From positions 8,662,494 through 8,726,493 of the forward strand of contig NC_057718.1 of the NCBI RefSeq assembly GCF_004010195.1: a DNA stretch of 64,000 bases, in the 5' to 3' direction. This document shows positions 5,296 through 57,700 of the stretch, one piece after another (within the stretch, counting starts at the first letter, position 1; every line of letters starts with the position of its first letter). Under the pieces are notes generated by a model. That model was given only the letters and a program-made list of their open reading frames with translations. It searched no databases and was not told the DNA's origin. The DNA comes from Chiloscyllium plagiosum (Eukaryota). A program made the position numbers and the translations under genes.

Positions 5296-5903
5296 GTGTG
5301 GGGTCTTTTAAATGCTGGAGAAAAGTTTTGGCTAACCAGGCTGAAGGATTTTCTGTTTGCAGAAAATGTCCCCTCAGCTCCCTACTTACCGAGCTACTGT
5401 GGCCATAGATTGTGGGAGCATCCAGCCATGGAGAATGCTGGACTCTTTCTCCTGTAGTTGCTCAGCCTTCCTCATCTCACCTCACTGGGCCCCTCAAAGA
5501 TCATCGCGGGTACTATTATCTTTGATCCCAGTAGTTCATTACTGAGCCCAGGTTGATTCCATCCATGGGCAGAATGGGGAGGAATCCCACAGTGACAGCA
5601 CAAGGGTTGCATCCTACGTGGACCTGGTAAAGGGAGATGGGAGGTGGGCATGTCTCCTCCCTCAATCTCCTTTACTGCCAGTTTGGCAGTCGTGCACACT
5701 CTGAAGGGAAAGTCATTTCTTCTGCTAGCAGGAGAGACTGATCATCCTCACTATCTCTTAGTATCTCAACAGACTTTCTCATCCTATCCTGGGGAAATAA
5801 GGCCATTTTTCCCTTGGAAACAAAATCCTACTATCTCTCAGACAGCACCTTTCAAACCTGTGGCCTCTCCCATCTAGAGAAGGACAAGGGCAGCAAGTAC
5901 ATG

Positions 5904-6246
5904 AGTCAAGATTAGTGTGGTGCTGGAAAAATACAGCAGGTCAGGCAGCATCCGAGGAGCAGGAAAATCGATGTTTCAGGCAGGAGCCCTTCATCAGGAA
6001 TGAGATTGAAGGAGCAGATTGCCCATCTCCCTTAACCAGGGTCACCTGTGGTGCAACCCTTGTGCTGTGACTGTGGGATTCCTCCCCATTCTGCCCATGG
6101 ATGGAATCGACCTCATTCCTGATGATGGGCTCCTGCCCGAAATGTCGATTTTCCTGCTCCTCGGATGCTGCCTGACCTGTTGCGTTTTTCCAGCACTACT
6201 CTAATCTTGACTCTAATCTCCAGCATCTGCAGTCCTCATTTTCGCC
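5904..6246. mobile_element. PLE family A fold-back with ~110-bp captured local DNA in the loop
   Basis: Inverted arms ~5904-6004 and ~6112-6212; 13-bp TSD CAGCAAGTACATG (5891-5903, 6247-6259). Confidence 0.85.
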
Positions 6247-6765
6247 CAGCAAGTACATGGGAATAGCACCAATTATAAGTTCCCCACCAAACCACTCACC
6301 ATCCTGGTTTGGAAATATATTACTGTTTCTTTAGCATCACTGGGTCAAAATTCTGGAATTCCCTCCCCATGGGCATTGTGTGTCCAAAATAGAGGAAGAC
6401 GAAACAATGATCTCATTCAACGTAATAGCACTGTTCACCTCCATCAACATCGACCTGGCAAAGGAAACACTTACCACACTTTTAGAAGAGACCATCACAC
6501 ACACCCCAACCACCATCAATCACATTACCAAAAAAAACATCATGAAGCTAGTGGGCCTGAGCCTCACCATCCACTTCACCTTCAACAACATAATCTACAA
6601 ACAAACCAACGGCACACCCATGGGATCTCCACTATCAGGATTCATAGCAGAAGCGGTAATGCAAAGACTAGAACAAACAGCCCTACCAACCATCAAACCA
6701 AAAATCTGGGTCCGCTACGTAGATGACACCTTTGTCATCACAAAACGAAACAAGATAGAAGAGAC

Positions 6766-7290
6766 NNNNNNNNNNNNNNNNNNNNNNNNNNNNNNNNNNN
6801 NNNNNNNNNNNNNNNNNNNNNNNNNNNNNNNNNNNNNNNNNNNNNNNNNNNNNNNNNNNNNNNNNNNNNNNNNNNNNNNNNNNNNNNNNNNNNNNNNNNN
6901 NNNNNNNNNNNNNNNNNNNNNNNNNNNNNNNNNNNNNNNNNNNNNNNNNNNNNNNNNNNNNNNNNNNNNNNNNNNNNNNNNNNNNNNNNNNNNNNNNNNN
7001 NNNNNNNNNNNNNNNNNNNNNNNNNNNNNNNNNNNNNNNNNNNNNNNNNNNNNNNNNNNNNNNNNNNNNNNNNNNNNNNNNNNNNNNNNNNNNNNNNNNN
7101 NNNNNNNNNNNNNNNNNNNNNNNNNNNNNNNNNNNNNNNNNNNNNNNNNNNNNNNNNNNNNNNNNNNNNNNNNNNNNNNNNNNNNNNNNNNNNNNNNNNN
7201 NNNNNNNNNNNNNNNNNNNNNNNNNNNNNNNNNNNNNNNNNNNNNNNNNNNNNNNNNNNNNNNNNNNNNNNNNNNNNNNNNNNNNNNNNN
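6766..7290. other. Assembly gap (other gaps: 11221-11238, 19320-19819, 45537-45599)
   Basis: Run of N. Confidence 1.
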
Positions 7291-7414
7291 TCCACATATC
7301 AACCCCTCAGAAAATGAACAGGAAATGACATCACCACAAACCCCAGGAACCCCATCCAGGACAAACATATAAATAGAAAGCAGGAGACAACAGCTTTGCT
7401 TCACTTGGAGGTCG

Positions 7415-7454
7415 CCACTGATGATGTTACCTAGCCAGGTAATGAAACGTCTGG
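7415..7454 (+). ncRNA. Minimal type I hammerhead ribozyme (family C)
   Basis: CCA-CTGATGA-T-GTTACC(TAGCCA)GGTAAT-GAA-ACGT-C-TGG: intact core, stem I CCA/TGG, stem II, palindromic ACGT stem III, GUC site. Confidence 0.8.
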
Positions 7455-7706
7455 ATATCAAACCTACAGCTCAGCGAGCAAACTTACACCCTAAACCTCA
7501 ACCTGAGCTACAAACCTTCACAAACCTTGCATTGTGTGTCTATATACAGCACATGGACAACAGTGGTTCAAGAGGGCAGCTCACTACATTCTCAAGGGGT
7601 AACAAGGGGTGTACCCAAATAGCGATGTCCATAGCCCATAAATTAATTATTTAAAATATTAGAATGGATCTTAGGGCAACACCTTCAAGAAAATTACATT
7701 ACCATT

Positions 7707-7786
7707 GTTGAAACTTTATTGCTGGAACAGCACAGCAGGTCAGGCAGCATCTAGGGAACAGGAGATTCGACGTTTCGGGCACAGGC
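7707..7786 (-). mobile_element. PLE family A terminal fragment between ~65-bp direct repeats
   Basis: GCTGGAACAGCACAGCAGGTCAGGCAGCATC...CGACGTTTCGGGC; 7633-7700 repeated at 7787-7855. Confidence 0.75.
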
Positions 7787-8189
7787 AGCCCATAAATTAA
7801 TTATTTAAAATATTAGAATGGATCTTAGGGCAACACCTTCAAGAAAATTACCATTACTGTTGGCATCATGTACACAGGAGGCAGTGGGGTGGCGGGTAAA
7901 ACCACTGGGCTAGTAATCCAAACCCACTCCCCTCAATGCTGCCCACCCACCACCCCACCCCCCCACCACCCCAGGTTAATCCTTAAAGGAATGGGTTTAA
8001 ATCCCACCCGACCAAATGGTTAAAGTTTGAATCCATTAAAATTCTGGAATTAAAAAACAAATGTTATGGCTATTGTGTAACCATTGGTAAAAACCCATTT
8101 GGCTCATTAATGCCCTCTAATGAAGGAAATTTGCCAAACCCACCTGGTCTGACTGAACCAGAACAAAATCAAAAACAGCAAGCAGACGA

Positions 8190-10355: not shown

Positions 10356-10465
10356 AAAACACCAGCCCAACTTTGGCACTAAAGTACCCGGAGTGGGTTA
10401 GAGCCCATAACCACATCACTCCAGCTGAGATGATTGACTCAGTTGGCTGGACAGCTGGTTGTTTA

Positions 10466-11866
10466 GATCAGAATGGTGCTGATAAGGCATAGCAGGCCAG
10501 GCAGCATCCGAGGAGTAGGAAAATCGACGTTTTGGGCAAAGGCCCTTCATCAGGAATAGAGGCAGGAAGCCTCCAGGGTGGAAAAATAAATGGGGGAGGT
10601 GGGGCTGGGGAGAAGGTAACAAAGAGTACAATAGGTGAAAGGGGGTGGAGACAGAGGCGATAGGTCAGAGAGGAGGATGAGGGAAGGTAGCATAGAGTAC
10701 AATAGGTAAATGTGGGTGGGGATGGGGTAAGGTGGAGGAGGGGAAATGACGAAACTGGTGAAGTCCACATTGATGCCCTGGGGTTGAAGTGTTCCGAAGC
10801 GGAAGGTGTTTTTCCTCCAGGCGTCGGGTGGTAAGGGACCGGTGGTGGACGCGGCCCAGGACCTGCATGACCTCGGCACAATGGGGGTCGGAGTTGAAAT
10901 GTTAGGCCATGGGGTAGTGGTGTTGATTGGTGCGGGTGTCCCGGAGATGTTCACTGAAGTGCTCTGTGAGAGACATCCAGTCTCCCCAACGTAGAGGAGA
11001 CCGCATCGGGAGCAACGGATACAATAAATGACATTGGTGGAGGTGCAGGTAAAACTTTGATTCATGTGGAAGGCTCCTCTGGGGCCTTGGATGGAGGTGA
11101 GGGAGGAGGTGTGGGCGCAGGTTTTGCAATTCCTGAGGTGGCAGGGGAAGGTGCCAGGATGGGAGGGTGGGTTGTAGGGGGGCGTGGACCTGACCAGGTA
11201 GTCACGGAGGGAACAGTCTTNNNNNNNNNNNNNNNNNNTATATGCGAAGGCTGGTAGGGTGGAAGATGAGCACCAGGGGCGTTCTGTCCTTGTTACGGTT
11301 GGAGGGGTGGGGTCTGAGGGCGGAGGTGCGGGATGTGGACGAGGTGCGTTGGAGGGCATCTTTAACCACCTGAGAAGGGAAATTGCGGTCTCTAAAGAAG
11401 GAGGCCATCTGGTGTGTTCTGTGGCGGGACTGGTCCTCCTGAGAGCAGATACAGTGGAGGCAGAGGAATTGGGAATGCAGGATGGCATTTTTGCAGGAGG
11501 TAGGATGGGTAGAGGTGTAGTCCAGTTAGCTGTGGGAGTCAGTGGGTTTGTAAAATATGTCAGTGTCAAGTCAGTCGTCATTAATGGAGATGGAGAGGTC
11601 CAGGAAAGGGAGAGAGGTGTCAGAGATGGTCCAGGTGAATTTAAGGTCAGGGTGAAATGCGTTGGTGAAGTTGATGAACTGCTCAACCTCCTCGTGGGAG
11701 CATGAGGTGGCGCCAATGCAGTCATCAGGAGGAAGAGGTGGGGAGTAGTGCCAGTGTAACTACAGAAGATGGACTGTTCTACGTAGCCGACAAAGAGACA
11801 GGCATAGGTGGGGCCCATGCGAGTGTCCATGGCTACCCCTTTGATCTGGAGGAAGTGGGAGGATTG
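10466..11866 (-). mobile_element. Penelope-like element family A (Neptune-like): RT C-half, Cys cluster, GIY-YIG endonuclease, HHR-bearing terminus; frameshifted
   Basis: HFLQIKGVAMDTRMGPTYACLFVG, CHLRNCKTC, CTSTNVIYCIRCSRCGLLYVGET; terminus 10470-10560 matches the fold-back arms. Confidence 0.9.
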
Positions 11867-12554
11867 CAATGGAGTGTGATGCCAACAATGCAGGTTCAAA
11901 TCCTGCACTGGCTTACCATGAAGGACTCTCCTTCTCAATCTCTCCCCTCACCTGAGGTGGGGTGACCCTCAGGTTAACCACCATCTGTCATCTCTCTCTC
12001 GTGACGGAATGGGACTAGGGTGACTTTACCTTTTTAGCAGGATGGTGGCAAAGTCCCACACATGTGGATAAGAATGTCCTACCCTGGAGGGTCATTGGCT
12101 CATTGGAGGCCCATGGTGCTGGGCCTAGGCCTGGGTCACCACTTGGGAGTCTCTCCACCTAGCAGGCTGGTGGGGTGGAAGGAGAATGGGGCAAAGGGTT
12201 TGAGCAACTGGAGCTTGAGAGATCCTGAGGGAGAGGGAAACCTGCGGGGTAGGGGGAAATGAGCGTGAAAGCTTGTTGTGATGGGGTTGGGAGGGGGAAA
12301 TCTCTGATGGGCCCAGGGAGATGCCCCCACTGCTTGGTATCTCCATGTACTGGGAAAGATGACTGTCTAGGAAGTTGGTGCCACTCATTAAATCTGGATG
12401 GCAGTGCATAGAGGGCCCCATGGGAATAGGTTGGGTATGGGGGGGCACTGGGTGGGTGCGGGTTGGGGGCGCTGCACACCACAAGTGGGCCACCATTGAC
12501 ATAATTACAATGTGACTCAGGCACAGCAACTAGTTCACTGGCTCCCTGATGTGC

Positions 12555-16545: not shown

Positions 16546-16958
16546 GAAATCCTTAGAAAGCAACTTCTAAACCCATGACCACTTCCACTTAGAAAGACAA
16601 GGGCTGCAGATACATGGGAATATCACCTGCAAGTTCCCCTCCAAATCACTCACCATCCTGACTTAGAAATATATCACTGCCCTTCATTGTCGCTGGGTCA
16701 AAATCCTGGAACTCCCACTCTTCAAGCATTTTGAGGATCCCATACCTCAAACAAGAAGGCAGCTCACTACCGCCCTCTCCAGGACATTAACAACAAATGC
16801 TGGGTCAGCCAGCAGGGTATAGTAAGGCACAGCTTCACAATCCTCACTCCTACATGTCTCTCTTTCTCTCTCACTTTCTATATCTTTGTTTCTCTTGCTC
16901 TTGTTTTCCATATCTCTGTCTCTTCTTAGAAAAAAATAACATTGTATCCCTCTCATAC

Positions 16959-20114: not shown

Positions 20115-20614
20115 CTGCCAAATGCAAAAAAAACTCTGAACTTTGGAAAATATTACAAAAAAGGCTGATACATTATTTACTTTCGCGCTCTGATATATCA
20201 TTTGACACTGCATCAGGCACGACCAGGGTAGCCTTAAATTTGAATGATGTGTTGTCATTTGTATTTTGCAGTGAATAATACAGTGAAAAGCTTCAACGGT
20301 CATTGCAATCTTGCAGCAGTTTGAATAGTTTAAGAATAAAAAGATAAAGCTAAAAGGAAGTCCATCTTCCTACCACTGCCTCCACCTGAGTTCTGAACCC
20401 TGAGCCAGCTCATCAATGACACCTGCACTTACACCAGCCCTCCTCCACCACCTCGCTACCATCTGCTCCAAAACCACCAGTGCTGGAGTCACCACCATCG
20501 CTTCACTGCTGGGTCCACCTCACTCATACTGACGTGGACCTAAACTTTACAGAACCTAAACTTGCAGTGCAAATAGGAGTCTATGGTTCTGCTGCTGCCT
20601 CTGCCTCACCAATA

Positions 20615-22682
20615 ACCAGGAGTCTCTGCTCCAGCCTACCGTGACCACAACCAGGAGTCTCTGCTCTGGGCCTAACGTGACCACAATCAGGAGTCACTGC
20701 TCTGGGCCTACCGTGACCACAACCAGGAGTGCCTGTCCCAGGCCTAATGTGACCACAACCACGAGTCATTGCTCTGGGCCTAACGTGACCCAAACCAGGA
20801 GTCCCTGTCCCAGGCCTAACGTAACCACAATCAGGAGTCTCTACTCTGGGCCTAACGTGATACAAACCAGGAGTCCTTGCTCTGGGCCAACCGTGACCAC
20901 AACCAGGAGTCCCTGATCTGGGCCTAACGTGACCACAACCAGGAGTCACTGCTCTGGGCCTACCATGACCACAACCAGGAGTCCCTGTCCCAGGCCTAAC
21001 GTAACCCAAACCAGGAGTCCTTGCTCTGGGCCAACTGTGACCACAACCAGGAGTCCCTGCTCTGGGCCTAACGTGATCACAACCAGGAGTCACTGCTCTG
21101 GGCCTACCATGACCACAACCAGGAGGCCCTGTCCCAGGCCTAATGTAACCCAAACCAGGAGTCCCTGCTCCCGGCCTAACGTGACCACAACCAGGAATCA
21201 CTGCTCTGGGCCTACCATGACCACAACCAGGAGTCACTGCTCTGGGACTAACATGACCACAACCAGGAGTCACTGCTCTCGGCCTAACGTGACCCGAACC
21301 AGAAGTCACTGCTCTGGGCCTAACGTGACCACAACCAGGAGTCACTGCTCTCGGTCTACCGTGACCTAAACCAGGAGTCTCTGGTCTGAGCATAACGTGA
21401 TCCAAACCAGTAGTCTCTGGTCTGGGCCTAACGTGACCCAAACCAGGAGTCTCTGGTCAGGGCCTAATGTGACCACAATCAGGAGTCCCTGCTCTGGGCC
21501 TAACGTGACCACAACCAGGAGTCCCTGCTCTGGGCCTAACGTGACCAAAACCAGGAGTCCCTGTCTGGGCCTAACGTGACCACAACCAGGAGTCACTGTT
21601 CTGGGCCTAACGTGACCACAACCAGGAGTCACTGCTCTGAGCCTAACATGATCCAAACCAGGAGTCCCTGCACTGGGCCTACCATGACCCAAACCAGGAG
21701 TCACTGCTCTGGGCCTACCGTGACCACAACCAGGAGTGCCTGTCCCAAGCCTAACGTGACCACAACCAGGAGTGCCTGTCCCAAGCCTAACGTGACCACA
21801 ACCAGGAGTCATTGCTCTGGGCCTAACGTGACCCAAACCAGGAGTCCCTGTCCCAGGCCTAACATAACCACAATCAGGAGTCTCTGCTCTGGGCCTAACG
21901 TGATACAAACCAGGAGTCACTGCTCTAGGCCTAACGTGACCACAACCAGGAGTCACTGCCCTGGGCCTAATGTAACCCAAACCAGGAGTCTCTGCTCTCG
22001 GCCTAACGTGACGACAACCAGGAGTCACTGCTCTGGGCCTACCATGACCACAACCAGGAGTCTCTGCTCTGGGCCTAACGTGACCCGAACCAGGAGTCAC
22101 TGCTCTGGGCTTAACTTGACCACAATCAGGAGTCACTGCTCTGGGCCTAACATGACCACAACCAGGAGTCACTGCTCTGGGCCTAACGTGACCACAACCA
22201 GGAGTCACTGCTCTCGGCCTACCGTGACCTAAACCAGGAGTCTCTGGTCTGGGCCTAACGTGATCCAAACCAGTAGTCTCTGGTCTGGGCCTAACGTGAC
22301 CCAAACCAGGAGTCTCGGGTCTGGGCCTAACGTGACCACAACCAGGAGTCACTGCTCTTAGCCTACCGTGACCACAACCAGGAGTCACTGCTCTGGACCT
22401 AACATGATCCAAACCAAGAGTCACTGCTCTGGGCCTACCATGACCACAACGAGGAGTCCCTGCTCTGGGCCTAACGTGACCACAACCAGGAGTCACTGCT
22501 CTGGGCCTAACATGACCCAAACCAGATGTCCCTGCTCTAGGCCTAACGTGACCCAAACCAGGAGTCCCTGCTCTGGGCCTACATGACCACAACCAGGAGT
22601 CCCTGCTCTGGGCCTACCGTAACCACAACCAGGAGTCACTGCTCTGGGCCTGCCGTGACCACAACCCGGAGTCTCTGGTCTG
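20615..22682. repeat. 36-bp minisatellite, about 57 units
   Basis: Consensus ACCAGGAGTCACTGCTCTGGGCCTAACGTGACCACA with recurrent variant units. Confidence 0.97.
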
Positions 22683-22699
22683 GATCTGTTGCAACCTGG

Positions 22700-46306: not shown

Positions 46307-47628
46307 CTGTATTAAAGGGGCACACATAGGAGTCACGGAGGTTGTGGTTTTAAACTCTCCTCCACACAACATGGACATGTGCTCCAGGCTGACGCTGCAC
46401 AGCAATGGTGAGGGATTGCTGCACTGTCAGAGATGCTGGTGAATATTCCCTGTTGTACTGGTTAACAATGTGGCATCTTGCTGCGTGGAAACTGGCAGCC
46501 ACGTTTCCCATGTGACCAAGCACACTTCCAACGTATCGAATTGTCAAGTGTTTTGGGAAGTCCGAGGGATGTAAAAAGTGGTATATAAATCCAGTACTTA
46601 CTTTAGTAGCTGCCCAGTGACCAACTCAGTGTGGTTCAGTAATGGTGTCATTGTTAGCTCTATTGTACTGGAGGTGTTGATTGGACTGATTGAGTCAGCA
46701 TACACTCCACATTTGGTTCCAAAACCCTCTCGTGTTCCCACTCAGACTTATCAAATAACATTTATCTTCATTAAATGACATCTGTCACTTGATGGTACAA
46801 ACTTCTATCCAATTTATTGTGGTTGTCTGCCAAGAAGCAGTGGGCTTCAAGCACAGTACATCAATCACTGCCAGAGAAATGATGCCACAGCATGTAACTG
46901 AACAGAGAAATGAGCAGCAACTCCTGCTGATCTGGCTACAGCTTTATTCTCAAAAGTCAATACACTTCCCTGGTTACGATGTACATTCTGTGCCCACGAG
47001 ATTTCAACAGATCATTGAAAACTACCAACAGCTTTGTAGCACACTTTATAAACTGCGGCATGAATAGGGAGGGCTTATTCAGTGCGACTAGTAAGTCAGG
47101 GTTTCACCTTGAGTCTCGTTCTTCACTCAGTCACCCCCTCTCTCGATCACGTTTTTCAAACATTTTAAAAACCTGGATTCACTCACCCCTCACCCTCCTG
47201 TTCTCCAGGAAATGCACGGCACTGTCATACAAACTGCTCTTCTTCTACAATTGGGTTGAATGGCACTAGAACTGGCATGATGGGCTGAATGGTCTTTGGT
47301 CAGTCAGTTTCCCATTGGAAAGGTCTGGGGACGGGTAGGATTTCAAGCGAAGAATGAGGTGGAAGTTTCTATAGTGATTGGTGAAGGGGGAGTGTGGGTG
47401 TGGTGGCAATGTGTGAGCAGGAGTAAGGTGGGAACTTGGTGGAACACTCAAACCCCTTCCGTTCCTGCGTTAGAGAGTCAGAAACGGAGAATTATTTTAA
47501 AAGGCAACCTCAATGGGCATCCTCTGACCTTGGCTCCATGTTGTAGTACAAGGAGCTTGGATCTGATAGGTTAATAGCTAATGAATGCATTAAGTTCCAA
47601 CTATTATGACAAGGTCATAAGAATTTGG

Positions 47629-48420
47629 GGAGAAAGTGAGGGCTGCAGATGCTAGAGATTAGAGCTGAAAATGTGTTGCTGGAAAAGCGCAGCAGGTCAG
47701 GCAGCATCCAAGGAACAGGAGGATCGACGTTTCGGGCATAAGCCCTTCTTCAGGAATGAGGAAAGTGTGTCCAGCAGGCTAAGATAAAAGGTAGGGAGGA
47801 GGGACTTGGGGGAGGGGCTTTGGAAATGCGATAGGTGGAGGGAGGTCAAGGTGAGGGTGATAGGCCGGAGTGGTGATAGGCCACCTACTTGCGGAACATT
47901 TCAGAGAACACCTCTGGGTCACCCGGACCAACCAACCCAACCACCCCGTAGCTCAACACTTTAAATCCCCCTCTCACTCCACCAAGGACATGCAGGTCCT
48001 TGGACTCCTCCATCGCCAGACCATGGCAACATGACGGTTGGAGGAAGAGCGCCTCATCTTCTGCCTGGGAACCCTCCAACCACAAGGGATGAACTCAGAT
48101 TTCTCCAGTTTCCTCATTTCCCCTCCCCCCACCTTGTCTCAGTCAAATACCTCGAACTCAGCACCGCCTTCCTAACCTGCAATCATCTTCCTGACCTCTC
48201 CGCCCCCACCCCACTCCGGCCTATCACCCTCACCTTGACCTCCCTCCACCTATCGCATTTCCAAAGCCCCTCCCCCAAGTCCCTCCTCCCTACCTTTTAT
48301 CTTAGCCTGCTGGACACACTTTCCTCATTCCTGAAGAAGGGCTTATGCCCGAAACATCAATTCTCCTGCTCCTTGGATGCTGCCTGACCTGCTGCGCTTT
48401 TCCAGCAACACATTTTCAGC
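47629..48420. mobile_element. PLE family A insertion with ~215-bp inverted termini around an endonuclease fragment
   Basis: Arms ~47662-47873 and ~48209-48421; perfect 14-bp TSD TCATAAGAATTTGG (47615, 48421). Confidence 0.9.
47722..47757 (-). ncRNA. Minimal hammerhead ribozyme (family A), core intact
   Basis: ATTC-CTGAAGA-A-GGGC(TTAT)GCCC-GAA-ACGT-C-GAT; opposite-strand copy at 48327-48362. Confidence 0.75.
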
Positions 48421-48969
48421 TCATAAGAATTTGGCTCAGGAAAACAGCTCTCATGTCAAAGGAGATAGACTAATGATCTTGGCCACCTCATAGACATATT
48501 TTCAAACAATATGCCACACCTTTGGAGCTGCTCGGAACCTGTGCCTCCTGGCCAAGAAGTAGAGACACTACCATTGTGCCAAAACAGACCTTATCATTTA
48601 GCTTGTACCATAAGACCATAAAACAGAGAAATTAGGCCATTCAGCCCATTGATTCCACTCCACCATTCAATCATGGCTGATATGTTTCTGAACACTAGTC
48701 TTCCACTTTCTCCCCGTAACCTTTGATCCCCTTGACAATCGAGAACCTATCTATCTCTGTTTTAAATATCCTCAGTGACTTGGCCTCCACAGCCTTCTGT
48801 GGCAGTGAACTCCACAGATTCACCCCTCTCTGGCTGAAGAGGTTTCGCCTTATCTCCGTTCCATAGGATCTTCCCTTTATTCTATTAATGTGCCCTCAGG
48901 TCCTTGTCTCTCCTGCCAATGGAAACATCTCCCCAACCTCCACTCTCTCCAGGCTGTTCGGTATTCAGT

Positions 48970-49333
48970 CAAGATTAGAGTGGTGCTGGAAAAGCACAGC
49001 AGATCAGGCAGTATCCGAGGAGCAGGAAAAATCGATGTTTCAGGCAAAAGCCCTTCATCAGGAAGAGCTGAATTCCTGATAAACAGCTTTTGCCCAAAAC
49101 ATCGATTTTACTGCTCCTCAGATGCTGTCTGACCTGCTGTGCTTTTCCAGCACCACTCTAATCTAGACTCTAATCTCCAGCATCTGCAGCAGGAAGAGCT
49201 GAATTCCTGATAAAGAGCTTTTGCCCAAAACGTCGATTTTACTGCTCCTCAGATGCTGCCTGACCTGCTGTGCTTTTCCAGCACCACTCTAATCTAGACT
49301 CTAATCTCCAGCATCTGCAGTACCCACTTCTGC
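48970..49333. mobile_element. PLE family A fold-back with tandemly duplicated right arm, inside a CR1 3' end
   Basis: One left arm, two right arms; 16-bp TSD CTGTTC(G/A)GTATTCAGT (48954, 49334). Confidence 0.85.
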
Positions 49334-49719: not shown

Positions 49720-50035
49720 TATTTACTCATGGGGCATGGATGGCAGTGGCTGGGACAGCATTTATTCCCCATCTCTACTTACCCTGGAGAAAGTGGTGAT
49801 GAACTGCCTTCCTGAAACACTACAGTCCATCTACTGTAGGTATATTCCACCACGCCAATAGGGAGTGAATTCCAGGGTTTTGACCCAGTGACAATGAAAG
49901 AACAGCGAATTATTTCCCAGTCAGGATGGTGAGTGTGTTGGAGAGGAACTTGCAGTTGGGGGTGTTCCCACATATCTGCTGACCTTGTTCTTCTAGATGG
50001 TAGTGGCCATGGGTTTGGAAGGTGCTGTCTGAAGA
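49720..50035 (-). mobile_element. 3' end of an old non-LTR element family (also ~5875-7610 interrupted, ~16580-16815)
   Basis: Shared CAAGTTCC..TCCAA.C.ACTCACCATCCTG..T.GGAAAT..GGGTCAAAA block in several copies. Confidence 0.6.
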
Positions 50036-50071
50036 TCTAGCTTAGTTGCCTCTTTCTTTTGATCGTCTTAC

Positions 50072-50120: not shown

Positions 50121-50322
50121 CTGAATTCAGAATTGCCAATGGTACATTCTTGATTATTTCCACCTTTATTTCAGCTCTGAACTGTTACCATCCTGGGAAA
50201 AATACTCGAAGGTTAGTGAAAGGATGGAGGCTTTCTTCTAACACACTGGACCAAGCAGGTCCTTTAGATCCCAACCTCAAAGGAGGTTGGTGGCAATCAA
50301 CCAGCTTTCTGGTAATCAGTTA

Positions 50323-50554
50323 GGAAAAAGTGTGGACTGCAGATGCTGGAGATCAGAGTCGCAAGCGTGGTGCTGGAAAAGCACAGCAGGTCAGGCAGCA
50401 TCAGAGGAGCAGGAGAATCAACGTTTCAGGCAGGAGTCCTTCATCAGGAATAGAGGCCTCATTCGTGATGAAGGGCTTATACCCGAAACATTGATTTTCC
50501 TACTCCTCAAGTGCTGCCTGACCTGCTGTGCTTTTCCAGCAAGACGCTGTTGAC
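50323..50554. mobile_element. PLE family A fold-back
   Basis: Inverted arms; 16-bp TSD TTCTGGTAATCA(G/A)TTA (50307, 50555). Confidence 0.85.
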
Positions 50555-52157
50555 TTCTGGTAATCAATTATTCAACCAGCCTATACAACATGGTGAGCAG
50601 TGTTAAGGGTTCACTAGATAATGCATGCCTCAGTCCCTGTCTTGACTTGAAAACCCTGCTGGTTGCCCCAGTCAAGAACTACAGAAAAACTAGAGTTAAA
50701 TCATAAAATCTCCCCCAGTAGAGATTTTTGATTGAAGAAGCCAGCTAACAATCTCAGCTGCAGAAAGGAACAACGTAGGTGACAAGAGAATCATCCAAAT
50801 CATAGAGATGTACAGCACAGAAACAGACTCTTCAGTCCAACCTGTCCATGCCAACCAGATATCCTAAATTAACCTAGTCCCATTTGCCAGCATTTGGCCC
50901 ATATCCCTCAAAATCCTTTCTATTCATGTACCTATCCAGATGCCTTTTAAATGTTGCAATTGTACCAGCCTCCATCACTTCCTCTGGCAGCTCATTCCAT
51001 ACAGACACCACCTTCTATGTGAAAATGGTCTCTTTCGTATATTTCCACTCTCACTTTAAACCTATGCCCTCAAGTTTTGGACTCCCCTCTACTGGGAAAA
51101 AAGCCTTTGGCTATTCATCATATCTATGATTTGAAAACTTCTATAAGGTCACCGCTCAGCCTCCAGCACTCCAGGGAATAGCCCCAGCCTATTCAGCCTC
51201 TCCCTACAGCTCAAATGGTGGGACTCTGGTGTATTCCCACCCTTGCAACTGTTGATCCTCATTGATAATGGAGGTAGTGGCAGGGTTTTAGATTAGATTC
51301 CCTACAGGGTGGAAACAGGCCCTTTGGCCCAACAAGTCCACACCGACCCGCTGAAGACTAACCCATCCCCCTCTGACTAATGCACCTAACAGCTTTGGAC
51401 AATTTAGCATGGCTAATTCACCTGACCTGCACGTCTTTGGACTGTGGGAGGAAACCGGAGCACCCAGAGGAAACCCACGCAGACACAGGGAGAATGTACA
51501 AACTCCACATAGACAGTCACCCGAGGCTGGAACTGAACCTGGCGCTGTGAAGCAGCAGTGCTAACCACTGAGCCATCATACCAAATGACCTCCTTGGAGT
51601 GCTATAGCGCTTCTTTGATTCCTTAATTATTAAATTTGAATTTTACATGGGATATGGGTATCTCTGGTAAGGCCAGCATTTGTTGTCCATCTCTAATTAC
51701 CCATAAACTGAGTGCTTTGCTATGATCTTTTCAATGGGCAGTTAACAGCCAGACCCATTACTGTGGGCCTGGAGTCACACATAGGCCATGTTGGGTAGGG
51801 ATGGGAGGTTTCCTTCTGAAGTGAACCAAATGGATGTCAAACTGCTATTCCTGAAATCAGCTTTAAATTCCAGATTATTTTGAATGCTACCAGCTGCCTT
51901 GTTCCAGTTTGATCCAGGCTCTCTAATCAGAGAGTCCATTGTACATCTCTAGCACAGGTGGGAATTGAGCCTGGATCTCTTGGCTCAGAGATAGGGACAC
52001 TACCTCAGTAGCCCCCACCCAGTGATTAGATTTCTTACGGTGTGGAATCAGGCCTTTTGGGCCAACAAATCCACACTGACCCTTCGAAGACCCATTCCCC
52101 CCTGACTAATGCACCTCACACTATGGGCAGTTAGCATGGCCAATTCGCCTGGCCTGC

Positions 52158-54701: not shown

Positions 54702-57700
54702 CAATAGACAATAGACAATAGGTGCAGGAGTAGGCCACTCTGCCCTTCGAGCCAACACCACCATTCGTTATGATCATGGCTGATCATCCTCAATCAGTAT
54801 CCTGCTCCTGCCTTATCCCCATAACCCTCGATTCCACTATCCTTAAGAGCTCTATCCAACTCTTTCTTGAAAGTATCCAGAGACTGGGCCTCCACAGCCT
54901 TCTGGGGCAGAGCATTCCATACACCCACCACTCTCTGGGTGAAGAAGTTTCTCCTCAACTCTGTTCTAAGTGGCCTACCCCTTATTTTTAAACTAAGTGG
55001 CCTACCCCTTATTTCAGGACTCACCCATCAGTGGAAACATGCTTCCTGTCTCCAGAATGTCCAATCCTTTAATAATCTTATACGTCTCAATCAGATCCCC
55101 TCTAAACTCAAGCGTATACAAGCCCAGTCGCTCCAATCCTTCAGCGTAAGATAGTCCCGCCATTCTGGGAATTGACCTCGTGAACCTACATTGCACTCCC
55201 TCAATAGCCAGAATGTCTTTCCTCAAATTTGGAGACCATAACTGTGCACAATATTCCAGGTGTGGTCTCACCAGGGCCCTGTACAGCTGCAGAAGGACCT
55301 CTTTGCTTCTATACTCAATTCCTCTTGTTATGAAGGCCAGCATGCTATTAGCTTTCTTCACTGCCTGCTGTACCTGCATGCTCGCTTTCATTGACTGATG
55401 TACAAGAGCACCTAGATCTCGTTGCACTGCCCCTTTACCTAACTTGACTCCATTTAGGCAGTAATCTGCCTTCCTGTTCTTGCCACCAAAGTGGATAACC
55501 ACACATTTATCCACATTAAACTGCATCTGCCATGCATCTATCCACTCACCTAGCCTGTCCAGGTCACCCTGTATTCTCCTAACATCCTCCTCACATTTCA
55601 CCCTGCCACCCAGCTTTGTGTCATCAGCAAATTTGCTAATATTACTTTTAATAAATTCATCTATATCATTAATGTACATTGTAAAAAGCTGCGGTCCCAG
55701 CACTGATCCCTGCGGCACACTATTGGTCACCGCCTGCCATTCCGAAGGGAAGCCATTTGTCACTACTCTTTGTTTCCTGTCAGCCAACCAATTTTCAATC
55801 CATGTCAGTATTTTGCCCCTAATACCATGTGCCCTAATTTTGCTCACTAACCTCCTGTGTGGGACTTCATCAAAAGCTTTCTGAAAGTCCAGGTATACTA
55901 CATCCACTGGATCTCCCCTGTCCATCTTCAGAGTTACATCCTCAAAAAATTCCAGAAGATTAGTCAAGCATGATTTCGCCTTCATAAATCCATGCTGTCC
56001 CTGACCTATCCTGTTACTGTTATCTAGATGTGTCATAATTTCATCCTTTATAATTGACTGCAGCATTTTTCCCACCACTGAGGTCAGGCTAACCCGTCTA
56101 TAATTCTCTGTTTTCTCTCTCCCTCCTTTCTTAAAAAGTGGGACAACATTAGCCACCCTGAATCTATAGAACATTGGAAAATGATCACGAATGCATCCAC
56201 GATTTCTAGAGCACCTCCTTCAGTGCCCTGGGATGTAGACCATCAGGTCCCAGGGACTTATCAGCCTTCAGACCTAACAGTCTCTCCAACACCTGGCAAA
56301 TATAAATTCCCTCAGTTCAGGTCCTTCAGCCACTATTACATCTGGGAGATTGATTAGATTAGATTACTTACAGTGTGGAAACAGGCCCTTCGGCCCAACA
56401 AGTCCACCCCGACCCTCCGAAGAGCAACCCACCCAGACTCATTCCCCTACATTTACCCCTTCATCTAACATTATGGGCAATTTAGCATGACCAATTCACC
56501 TAACATGCACATTTTTGGACTGTGGGAGGAAACCGGAGCACCCGGAGGAAACCCACGCAGACACGGAGAGAATGTGCAAACTCCACACAGACAGTTGCCT
56601 GAGGTGGGACTTGAACCTGGACCTCTGGCGCTGTGAGGCAGTAGTGCTAACCATTGTGCCACTGTGCCGCCCATTGCTCGTGTCTTCCCCAGTGAAGACA
56701 GATCTAAAGTACCAATTCAACTCTTCTGCCATTTCTTTGTTCCCCATAATAAATTCACCCGTTTCTGTCTTCAAGGGCCCAATTTTAGTCTTAACCATTT
56801 ATTTTCTTTTATATACCTAAAAAAGCCTTTACTATCCTCCTTTATATTTTTGGCCAGTTTACCTTCGTACCTCATTTTTTCTTTGCATATTTCCTTTTTA
56901 GTTATCCTCTTTTGTTCTTTAAAAGCTTCCCAGTCCTCCGTTTTCCCACTTATCTTTGCTATGTTATACTTTTTCACTTTTGTCTTTATATGGTCCTTAA
57001 CTTCCCTCATTCGCCACGGCCACCCCTGCCTCCTCTTAGGATCTTTCTTCCTTTTTGGAATGAACTGCATTATACCCAGAAATACCTGCCATTGTTGTTC
57101 CACTGCCATCCCTGCTAGGGTATTGCACCATTGAACTTTGGCCAGCTCCTCCCTCATAGCTCCATAGTTCCCTTTATTCAACTGAAATATTGTCACTTCC
57201 GATTCTACCCTATCCCTTTCAAACTGGAGATCATTATATTGTGGTCACTACCTCCTAATGACTCCTTTACTTCAAGATCCCTGATGTGTTGCACAACACC
57301 AGATCCAGAATTGCCTTCTCCCTGGTCGGCTCCAGCACCAGCTGTTCTAAGAATCCATCTCGGAGGCACTCCACAAACTCCCTTTCTTGGGGTCCAGTAC
57401 CATCCTGATTCTCCCAGTCCACCTGCATGTTGAAATCCCCCATAACAACTGTAGTAATATCTTTGCGACAGGCCAATTTCAGCTCCTTATTCAACTTACA
57501 CACTACATCCAGGCTACTGTTTGGGGATCTGTAGATAACTCCCATTCGGGTCTTTCTACCCTTAGAATTTCTCAGTTCTATCCATACTGACTCTACATCC
57601 CCTGATTCTAGGTCTCCCTGTGCAGGGGACTGAATATCATTCCTTACCAACAGGACCACCCCACCCCCTCTGCCAGTCAGTCTGTCCTTACGATAGCACG

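Follow-up and report, generated by a model that had tools for sequence, protein, structure and literature searches.

An inverted copy of nearby chromosomal DNA between the arms of a fold-back Penelope-like insertion

The window (the whole stretch of DNA that was analysed, 64,000 nt) contains, near its left end, a fold-back unit built of two head-to-head 3' ends of a Penelope-like element (PLE). The positions of the unit and of the features discussed with it are collected in Table 1. The unit is flanked by a perfect TSD, CAGCAAGTACATG, whose copies are identical at 13/13 positions, in agreement with the initial annotation, which had placed the unit inside a 13-bp duplication. Only the right arm carries a tail, which is 33 nt long (6214-6246). 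Over their shared part (5903-6004 and 6111-6213), the arms are identical at 93/102 positions; five of the nine differences fall at CpG sites, and both arms have the same minor variants, namely the stem-loop CTCCTG and an A at 5931. Between the arms lies a loop, of which 6005-6110 is part of neither arm.

Table 1. Positions of the fold-back unit, its donor and associated features in the window
Feature	Position	Strand	Basis
TSD, left copy	5891..5903	+	window repeat search
TSD, right copy	6247..6259	+	window repeat search
Left arm: inverted PLE 3' end with minimal hammerhead motif, without tail	5903..6004	-	
Right arm: PLE 3' end in sense, decayed hammerhead at ~6119-6147	6111..6246	+	
Loop, inverted copy of 5550-5669	6002..6113	+	
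Donor, in decayed single-copy retroelement relic	5550..5669	-	alignments; single-copy depth
CTC, complementary to GAG at the end of the left cDNA; proposed site of snap-back priming	5667..5669	+	
Left part of the target repeat fragment	5833..5903	+	alignment to window copies; raised depth
Six differences between loop and donor, clustered within 11 nt	6041..6051	+	permutation P about 0.004
Decayed, longer copy related to the arms, with ORF relic; identifies the parent family	10458..12100	-	

The structure of the unit is that of a PLE insertion: an inverted 5'-truncated copy stands beside a direct copy, with a one-sided tail of 30-40 nt and a short TSD, and inverted truncated copies with such a tail are the pattern described in the passages available from PMC8557442 and PMC3846280. 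The minimal hammerhead in the arms was recognised by eye in the arm alignment from its core, an unpaired base before helix II and palindromic 15.2-16.2, with the features given for metazoan PLEs in a portion of PMC4209133 used as the reference. Helix II folds as GGGC/GCCC in the arm hammerhead, and the CG is decayed in both focal copies. Rfam gave no match at gathering score in the window, hammerhead included.

The arms represent the 3' end of an abundant family, with 23 matches in the window and a depth in raw reads of ~25,000-41,000 times that of the noisy single-copy flank (1.4). In the translation of the ORF relic that identifies the parent family (10550-11947), RT-like motifs, a C-x4-C-xx-C linker and a GIY-YIG-like motif are visible. 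Searches with this relic against Pfam RT and PDB found no match, and neither did its comparison with the other RT in the window, while the Pfam GIY-YIG score (E 0.29) fell below the cut-off. The linker agrees with the Neptune-type arrangement (CX2-5CxxC before GIY-YIG), but it is insufficient alone to assign the relic to Neptune because, in the part of PMC8557442 consulted, it is common to Neptune, Nematis and Naiad. As Pfam support is weak, the description "Neptune-like PLE" is based on motifs and structure.

The window also holds a second, different Penelope-type RT fragment at 6385-7470 (Pfam RVT_1, E 2.5e-9); this fragment includes a 525-N gap and, near 7420-7450, a second hammerhead-like motif. 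At 7633-7857, a single PLE arm sits between the copies of a ~70-bp direct duplication (98.6%), far longer than the usual TSD. Many arms have their 5' end 2-10 nt before the hammerhead core, at an initiator-like TCATTCC; this cluster may correspond to the 5' end of the RNA. A 20-mer from the arm hit 0 viral-contig, 17 metagenome-contig and 9 prokaryote-genome loci, all 26 of which match over 20-31 nt only and were set aside as chance. Elsewhere, a 36-bp minisatellite of ~58 copies (20614-22683) yields long open frames, and a 401-aa open frame at 55014-56219 resembles a CR1-type LINE RT. By its SINE, the host is probably a shark-like fish.

The donor of the loop lies 222-341 bp upstream of the TSD. 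It was initially labelled a Gypsy protease relic, and its translation does resemble a Gypsy protease by its motifs (ILRD-S, LPMDGI-L). The label was not confirmed, as the donor protein returned 0 relevant families from Pfam, 0 of 39 candidates scored in a homologue search and 0 matches among representative sequences. The donor holds a 7-nt tandem duplication (5635-5641 and 5642-5648, with one mismatch); only a single unit of it is present in the loop. The direct target of the insertion is a fragment of another repeat (~5833-6384), distinct from the donor relic, that aligns unbroken across the site to window copies at 16552-16716 and 49848-50036 (77%). We presume this repeat to be LINE-like.

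The initial annotation had read the spacer as the reverse complement of 5551-5669. This was confirmed, and the copy is slightly longer: 6002-6113 aligns with the reverse complement of 5550-5669 at 100/112 identical pairs, with eight gap columns made up of one 1-nt and one 7-nt gap. The same count of 59/61 was recovered for the core (6052-6112 against the reverse complement of 5551-5611), and the ungapped block 6022-6112 is 90% identical over 91 nt (E 3e-31 in the window). On the inverted strand the local score reached 137, against a maximum of 27 across 300 shuffles of the loop; the direct strand gave 22. Among 1056 window self-hits, five were low-copy local pairs (<2 kb), and the loop and its donor were the sole inverted pair among them. 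No second loop-like copy was found by self-comparison of the window. At the left junction the noted GAG microhomology is real (6002-6004 matches the reverse complement of 5667-5669), and a second one that had been overlooked, CCT, is present at the right (6111-6113 matches the reverse complement of 5550-5552). The chance of both 3-nt overlaps together is ~0.003 under a simple equal-base model. The loop is thus templated on local DNA, and the observation is real.

To evaluate copy number and related organisms, four of 24 listed public sequence runs were compared at an 85% identity threshold: X4 and X19 from organism A (the same as the window), X5 from organism B and X9 from organism C, leaving aside X13, X14 and X22-X24, with small shares. 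The shares read were 84, 100 and 87 in 100 of the contig sets (X4, X5 and X9) and 4 in 100 of the raw run X19, so a hole in coverage proves nothing in runs read in part (4 to 100 in 100). Over 5370-5813, barring small bumps, a single contig covers the sequence in X4 and X5 and at most one in X9, while X19 gives a read depth of 0-3.5. The donor is therefore at single-copy depth in all four runs, and no donor paralogue at 85% identity or above shows. The initial annotation had named two observations that would speak against a local origin, a loop dispersed with many copies of the element and a distant copy matching better than the local one. Neither was seen at 85% or above in the shares read of the four runs, and the adjacent DNA was the best match of the loop both there and in the window. 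Together with the microhomology at both junctions, this supports a local origin.

We considered whether the unit could be an assembly artefact, which we regard as highly improbable. The loop bin 6036-6072 is uncovered in all three contig sets (X4, X5 and X9), and no piece spans the unit among the pieces listed. The raw run X19, however, has a depth of 1 on this bin and of 0 on the donor bin 5555-5591, which gives the loop itself the support of about one raw read. The 12 substitutions and two gaps between loop and donor would not arise from a chimera, and the TSD and both microhomologies are precise. The loop is probably missing from the contig sets through assembler cleaning between very deep repeats.

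Contigs run from the TSD into the left arm for 26 nt in A and B and for 35 nt in C, which is the only one that reaches the bridging rule of 31 letters; the left junction is present in all three. The suggested search for an empty orthologous site in relatives yielded none among the 15 joints listed (1702 others), because both related organisms already carry the left junction. The B donor differs from that of A at 18/466 positions with no gaps, and the C contig has no gaps relative to A from 5625 on; both organisms therefore carry the 7 extra nt. In C there is no cover over 5503-5624, and its two contigs are clipped at both edges. The hole may reflect missing data, or else a deletion or insertion that took away the greater part of the donor.

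The loop differs from its donor about as much as one arm does from the other (12/112 and 9/102 differences; no significant difference, Fisher p 0.82), so loop and arms can be the product of one event. Outside CpG sites the loop is the more diverged (11/112 against 4/97), although not significantly so (p 0.18). Divergence between loop and donor exceeds that between the A and B orthologues (11/108 vs 21/626, p 0.004), which would place the event before the split of A, B and C. The insertion is old and dead, with ~10% decay since. Two features call for extra events to be assumed. For the 7-nt difference, either the donor gained its duplication later or the loop lost a unit by slippage. The other is the cluster of six differences in Table 1, where the loop version folds more strongly than that of the donor (-5.6 vs -1.1 kcal/mol); clustered changes beside microhomology-repaired breaks are mentioned in an excerpt of PMC9977147. 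There is no need to invoke a later gene conversion of the 61-nt core, since a 61-nt window with at most 2 of 11 differences has a P of 0.06.

These two differences could also mean that the template was not the adjacent strand but a paralogue of the retroelement or a diverged allele from the homologous chromosome. The position of substitutions between loop and donor was examined as a test for a paralogous source, and six of 12 fall at third codon positions, in that direction but not significantly (binomial p 0.18). We judge such a template very unlikely, as no second copy was found at 85% or above in the four partly read runs and none in the window, and a random paralogue that matched exactly 222-341 bp from the site would be a large coincidence.

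The window contains eight two-armed units (bounds set by hand; one with a tandem duplication), and these inform how the focal unit was built. In 8/8 the tail is one-sided, and in 8/8 the arm without the tail has its outer end at almost the same position of the element. The junctions, judged by eye, are all different: five arm pairs abut or overlap by a few bases, two are separated by short fillers and one, the focal unit, by a long one. As each unit has its own junction, fold-backs arise separately at each site and are not copied as complete units. The claim in the initial annotation that they are built in situ therefore stands, better supported by the varied junctions of the other units than by the focal loop; it fits the published structure of PLE insertions and hence is not new. 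A self-copying, MITE-like fold-back element was rejected, given that the eight units differ at the junction and the loop is not dispersed. The unit at 47616-48433 is a longer, younger fold-back with arms identical at 208/212 positions. At its junction (47856-47882), a 9-nt filler repeats the end of its own arm (47856/47872), giving an 11-nt direct repeat. This unit shows templated joining on a shorter scale, apparently by loop-out. No convincing local donor was found for the 6-nt filler of unit 48961. A 131-bp tandem duplication inside a fold-back, at 49059-49320, includes the arm junction and filler.

The initial annotation had proposed that, during integration, the PLE RT or a repair polymerase switched from the element to local DNA and back. 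The local origin held up. The switch back is the less economical reading, as a single switch followed by a microhomology join to a second, separately primed cDNA needs fewer steps. In its fuller form, this proposal has one cDNA, with the RT quitting the element RNA to copy local DNA or nascent RNA from the locus before jumping back or self-priming to give the second arm. Self-priming and template jumps have been proposed for rotifer PLE head-to-head repeats in the portion of PMC3846280 at hand, and L1 templated insertions are ascribed, in the corresponding part of 10.1101/2024.08.27.596794, to cDNA pairing with nearby DNA. The minority variants shared by the focal arms are also what a single template would give. 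The arms of unit 50324 (50307-50570), however, differ at 17/101 positions and look like two subfamilies, which suggests two RNA templates in one insertion. The near-constant outer end of the tail-less arm also points to a second RT start site more than to a variable stop, and two switches would be needed instead of one. We consider a single jumping cDNA quite unlikely.

Instead, we think it rather probable that the loop is locally templated filler, made during the sealing of a two-ended Penelope insertion. Judging from the TSD, the element endonuclease would have cut both strands 13 bp apart. The arms and tail suggest that both 3' ends then primed cDNA on element RNA from starts ~33 nt apart, in line with an anole PLE protein that, in passages of PMC11167929, cuts and extends both strands from two RNA start sites bounding the tail. 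Both cDNAs would have halted at most 1 nt apart, just 5' of the hammerhead core, leaving two ends of like sequence that could not pair. The matching bases at the junctions then point to the left cDNA end, GAG, having paired with CTC at 5667-5669, a priming site 337 nt back on its own strand that would have been single-stranded after resection of the left end. About 110 nt would have been copied, ending at 5550, and the new CCT end may have annealed to the AGG of the right cDNA before gaps were filled. The candidate polymerases are a host end-joining polymerase and the RT of the element. By strand geometry, snap-back on a resected left end would give a left-flank donor in inverted orientation.

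This snap-back filling is consistent with an inverted match far above chance, microhomology at both junctions and an intact TSD. Snap-back with primer and resolution microhomologies is the signature of SD-MMEJ in the portion of PMC5728401 consulted. Against the SD-MMEJ norm, the distance of 222-341 bp and the length of ~110 nt far exceed the ~30-nt reach discussed there, so that long resection or strand invasion would be needed; they are also far beyond the 15 bp within which the templates of L1 insertions typically lie. With its template not within ~30 nt of the break, the event works like snap-back SD-MMEJ and is not filed as a canonical case. The case comes from one locus only. A known type of copying in the style of repair, at insertion or shortly afterwards, has left a clear footprint in the unit, and the loop was probably made while the insertion was being sealed or just afterwards.

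The same two microhomologies would be predicted if a near-perfect palindrome had closed first and later broken at its centre, to be patched by inverted nearby DNA that then stabilised it as a spacer. The focal arms end 1 nt apart in the element, as expected of a perfect palindrome, and unit 50324 shows such a join, at a perfect GGCC. Palindromes are break-prone and are stabilised by spacers according to the section of PMC8701086 available, although spacer inclusion is described there as uncommon in transgene concatemers. The loop is, however, no closer to its donor than arm is to arm, so repair would have had to follow quickly, and the five units with tight junctions persist unpatched in the window. 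We therefore regard repair of a closed palindrome as unlikely, and filling during sealing remains our preferred reading.

The biological effect of the focal copy is probably nil, as it amounts to 110 nt of dead retroelement DNA. Its interest lies in the junction, which records a primer microhomology, a template strand, a distance and a resolving microhomology, and so constrains the post-reverse-transcription step of PLEs; in passages of PMC11167929, the steps after reverse transcription (second strand and host repair) are described as not yet validated. One case is a fossil only, while the abundance of the arms would let donor orientation, side and distance be counted genome-wide. It is possible, though doubtful, that local capture is a recurrent way to close PLE insertions, with a fraction of them sealed by snap-back onto resected chromosomal DNA over hundreds of bases to ~1 kb. 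If so, loops would form a fossil record of the PLE second-end step and of germ-line resection lengths, across tens of thousands of stubs, and would steadily supply small inverted duplications of host DNA.

In a search of the open-licence PMC and bioRxiv literature, no description was found of a PLE arm junction holding an inverted filler of local origin. The focal unit is a variant of known behaviour, notable mainly because it is possibly recurrent in the genome. Insertions of endonuclease-bearing (EN+) PLEs, in the parts of PMC8557442, PMC3846280 and PMC11167929 available, are likewise head-to-head and 5'-truncated, with a tail at one end, a short TSD and a minimal hammerhead. They have a short palindrome or overlap at the junction, whereas the focal junction holds ~106 nt of local chromosome, and the focal copies are only ~100-135 nt each. 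Solo pLTRs of Adineta vaga also contain unrelated host sequence between PLE repeats, all within the TSD, but in the passages of PMC3846280 these captures are not traced to site-adjacent DNA; here the donor is 222-341 bp away and inverted, with microhomology at both ends. In L1, nearby genomic segments are similarly duplicated into new insertions, and templated genomic insertions are reported, in the portions of 10.1101/2024.08.27.596794 and PMC11702581 consulted. According to the former, there were 22 cases in ~3,600, typically <250 bp and with templates typically within 15 bp of the site, although its Supplementary Fig. 4d may include longer distances. L1 twin priming, as described in the same portions of both sources, shares the microhomology join with the focal unit but belongs to a different element class, and its cDNAs cover different parts of the RNA, whereas those of the focal unit cover the same part. 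A further related system is snap-back SD-MMEJ (synthesis-dependent MMEJ), for which the section of PMC5728401 available describes an inverted templated insert with a primer repeat at one end and a resolving microhomology at the other, as here; the reach described there is ~30 nt at nuclease breaks, compared with 337 nt along the strand and ~110 nt copied from a cDNA end in the focal unit.
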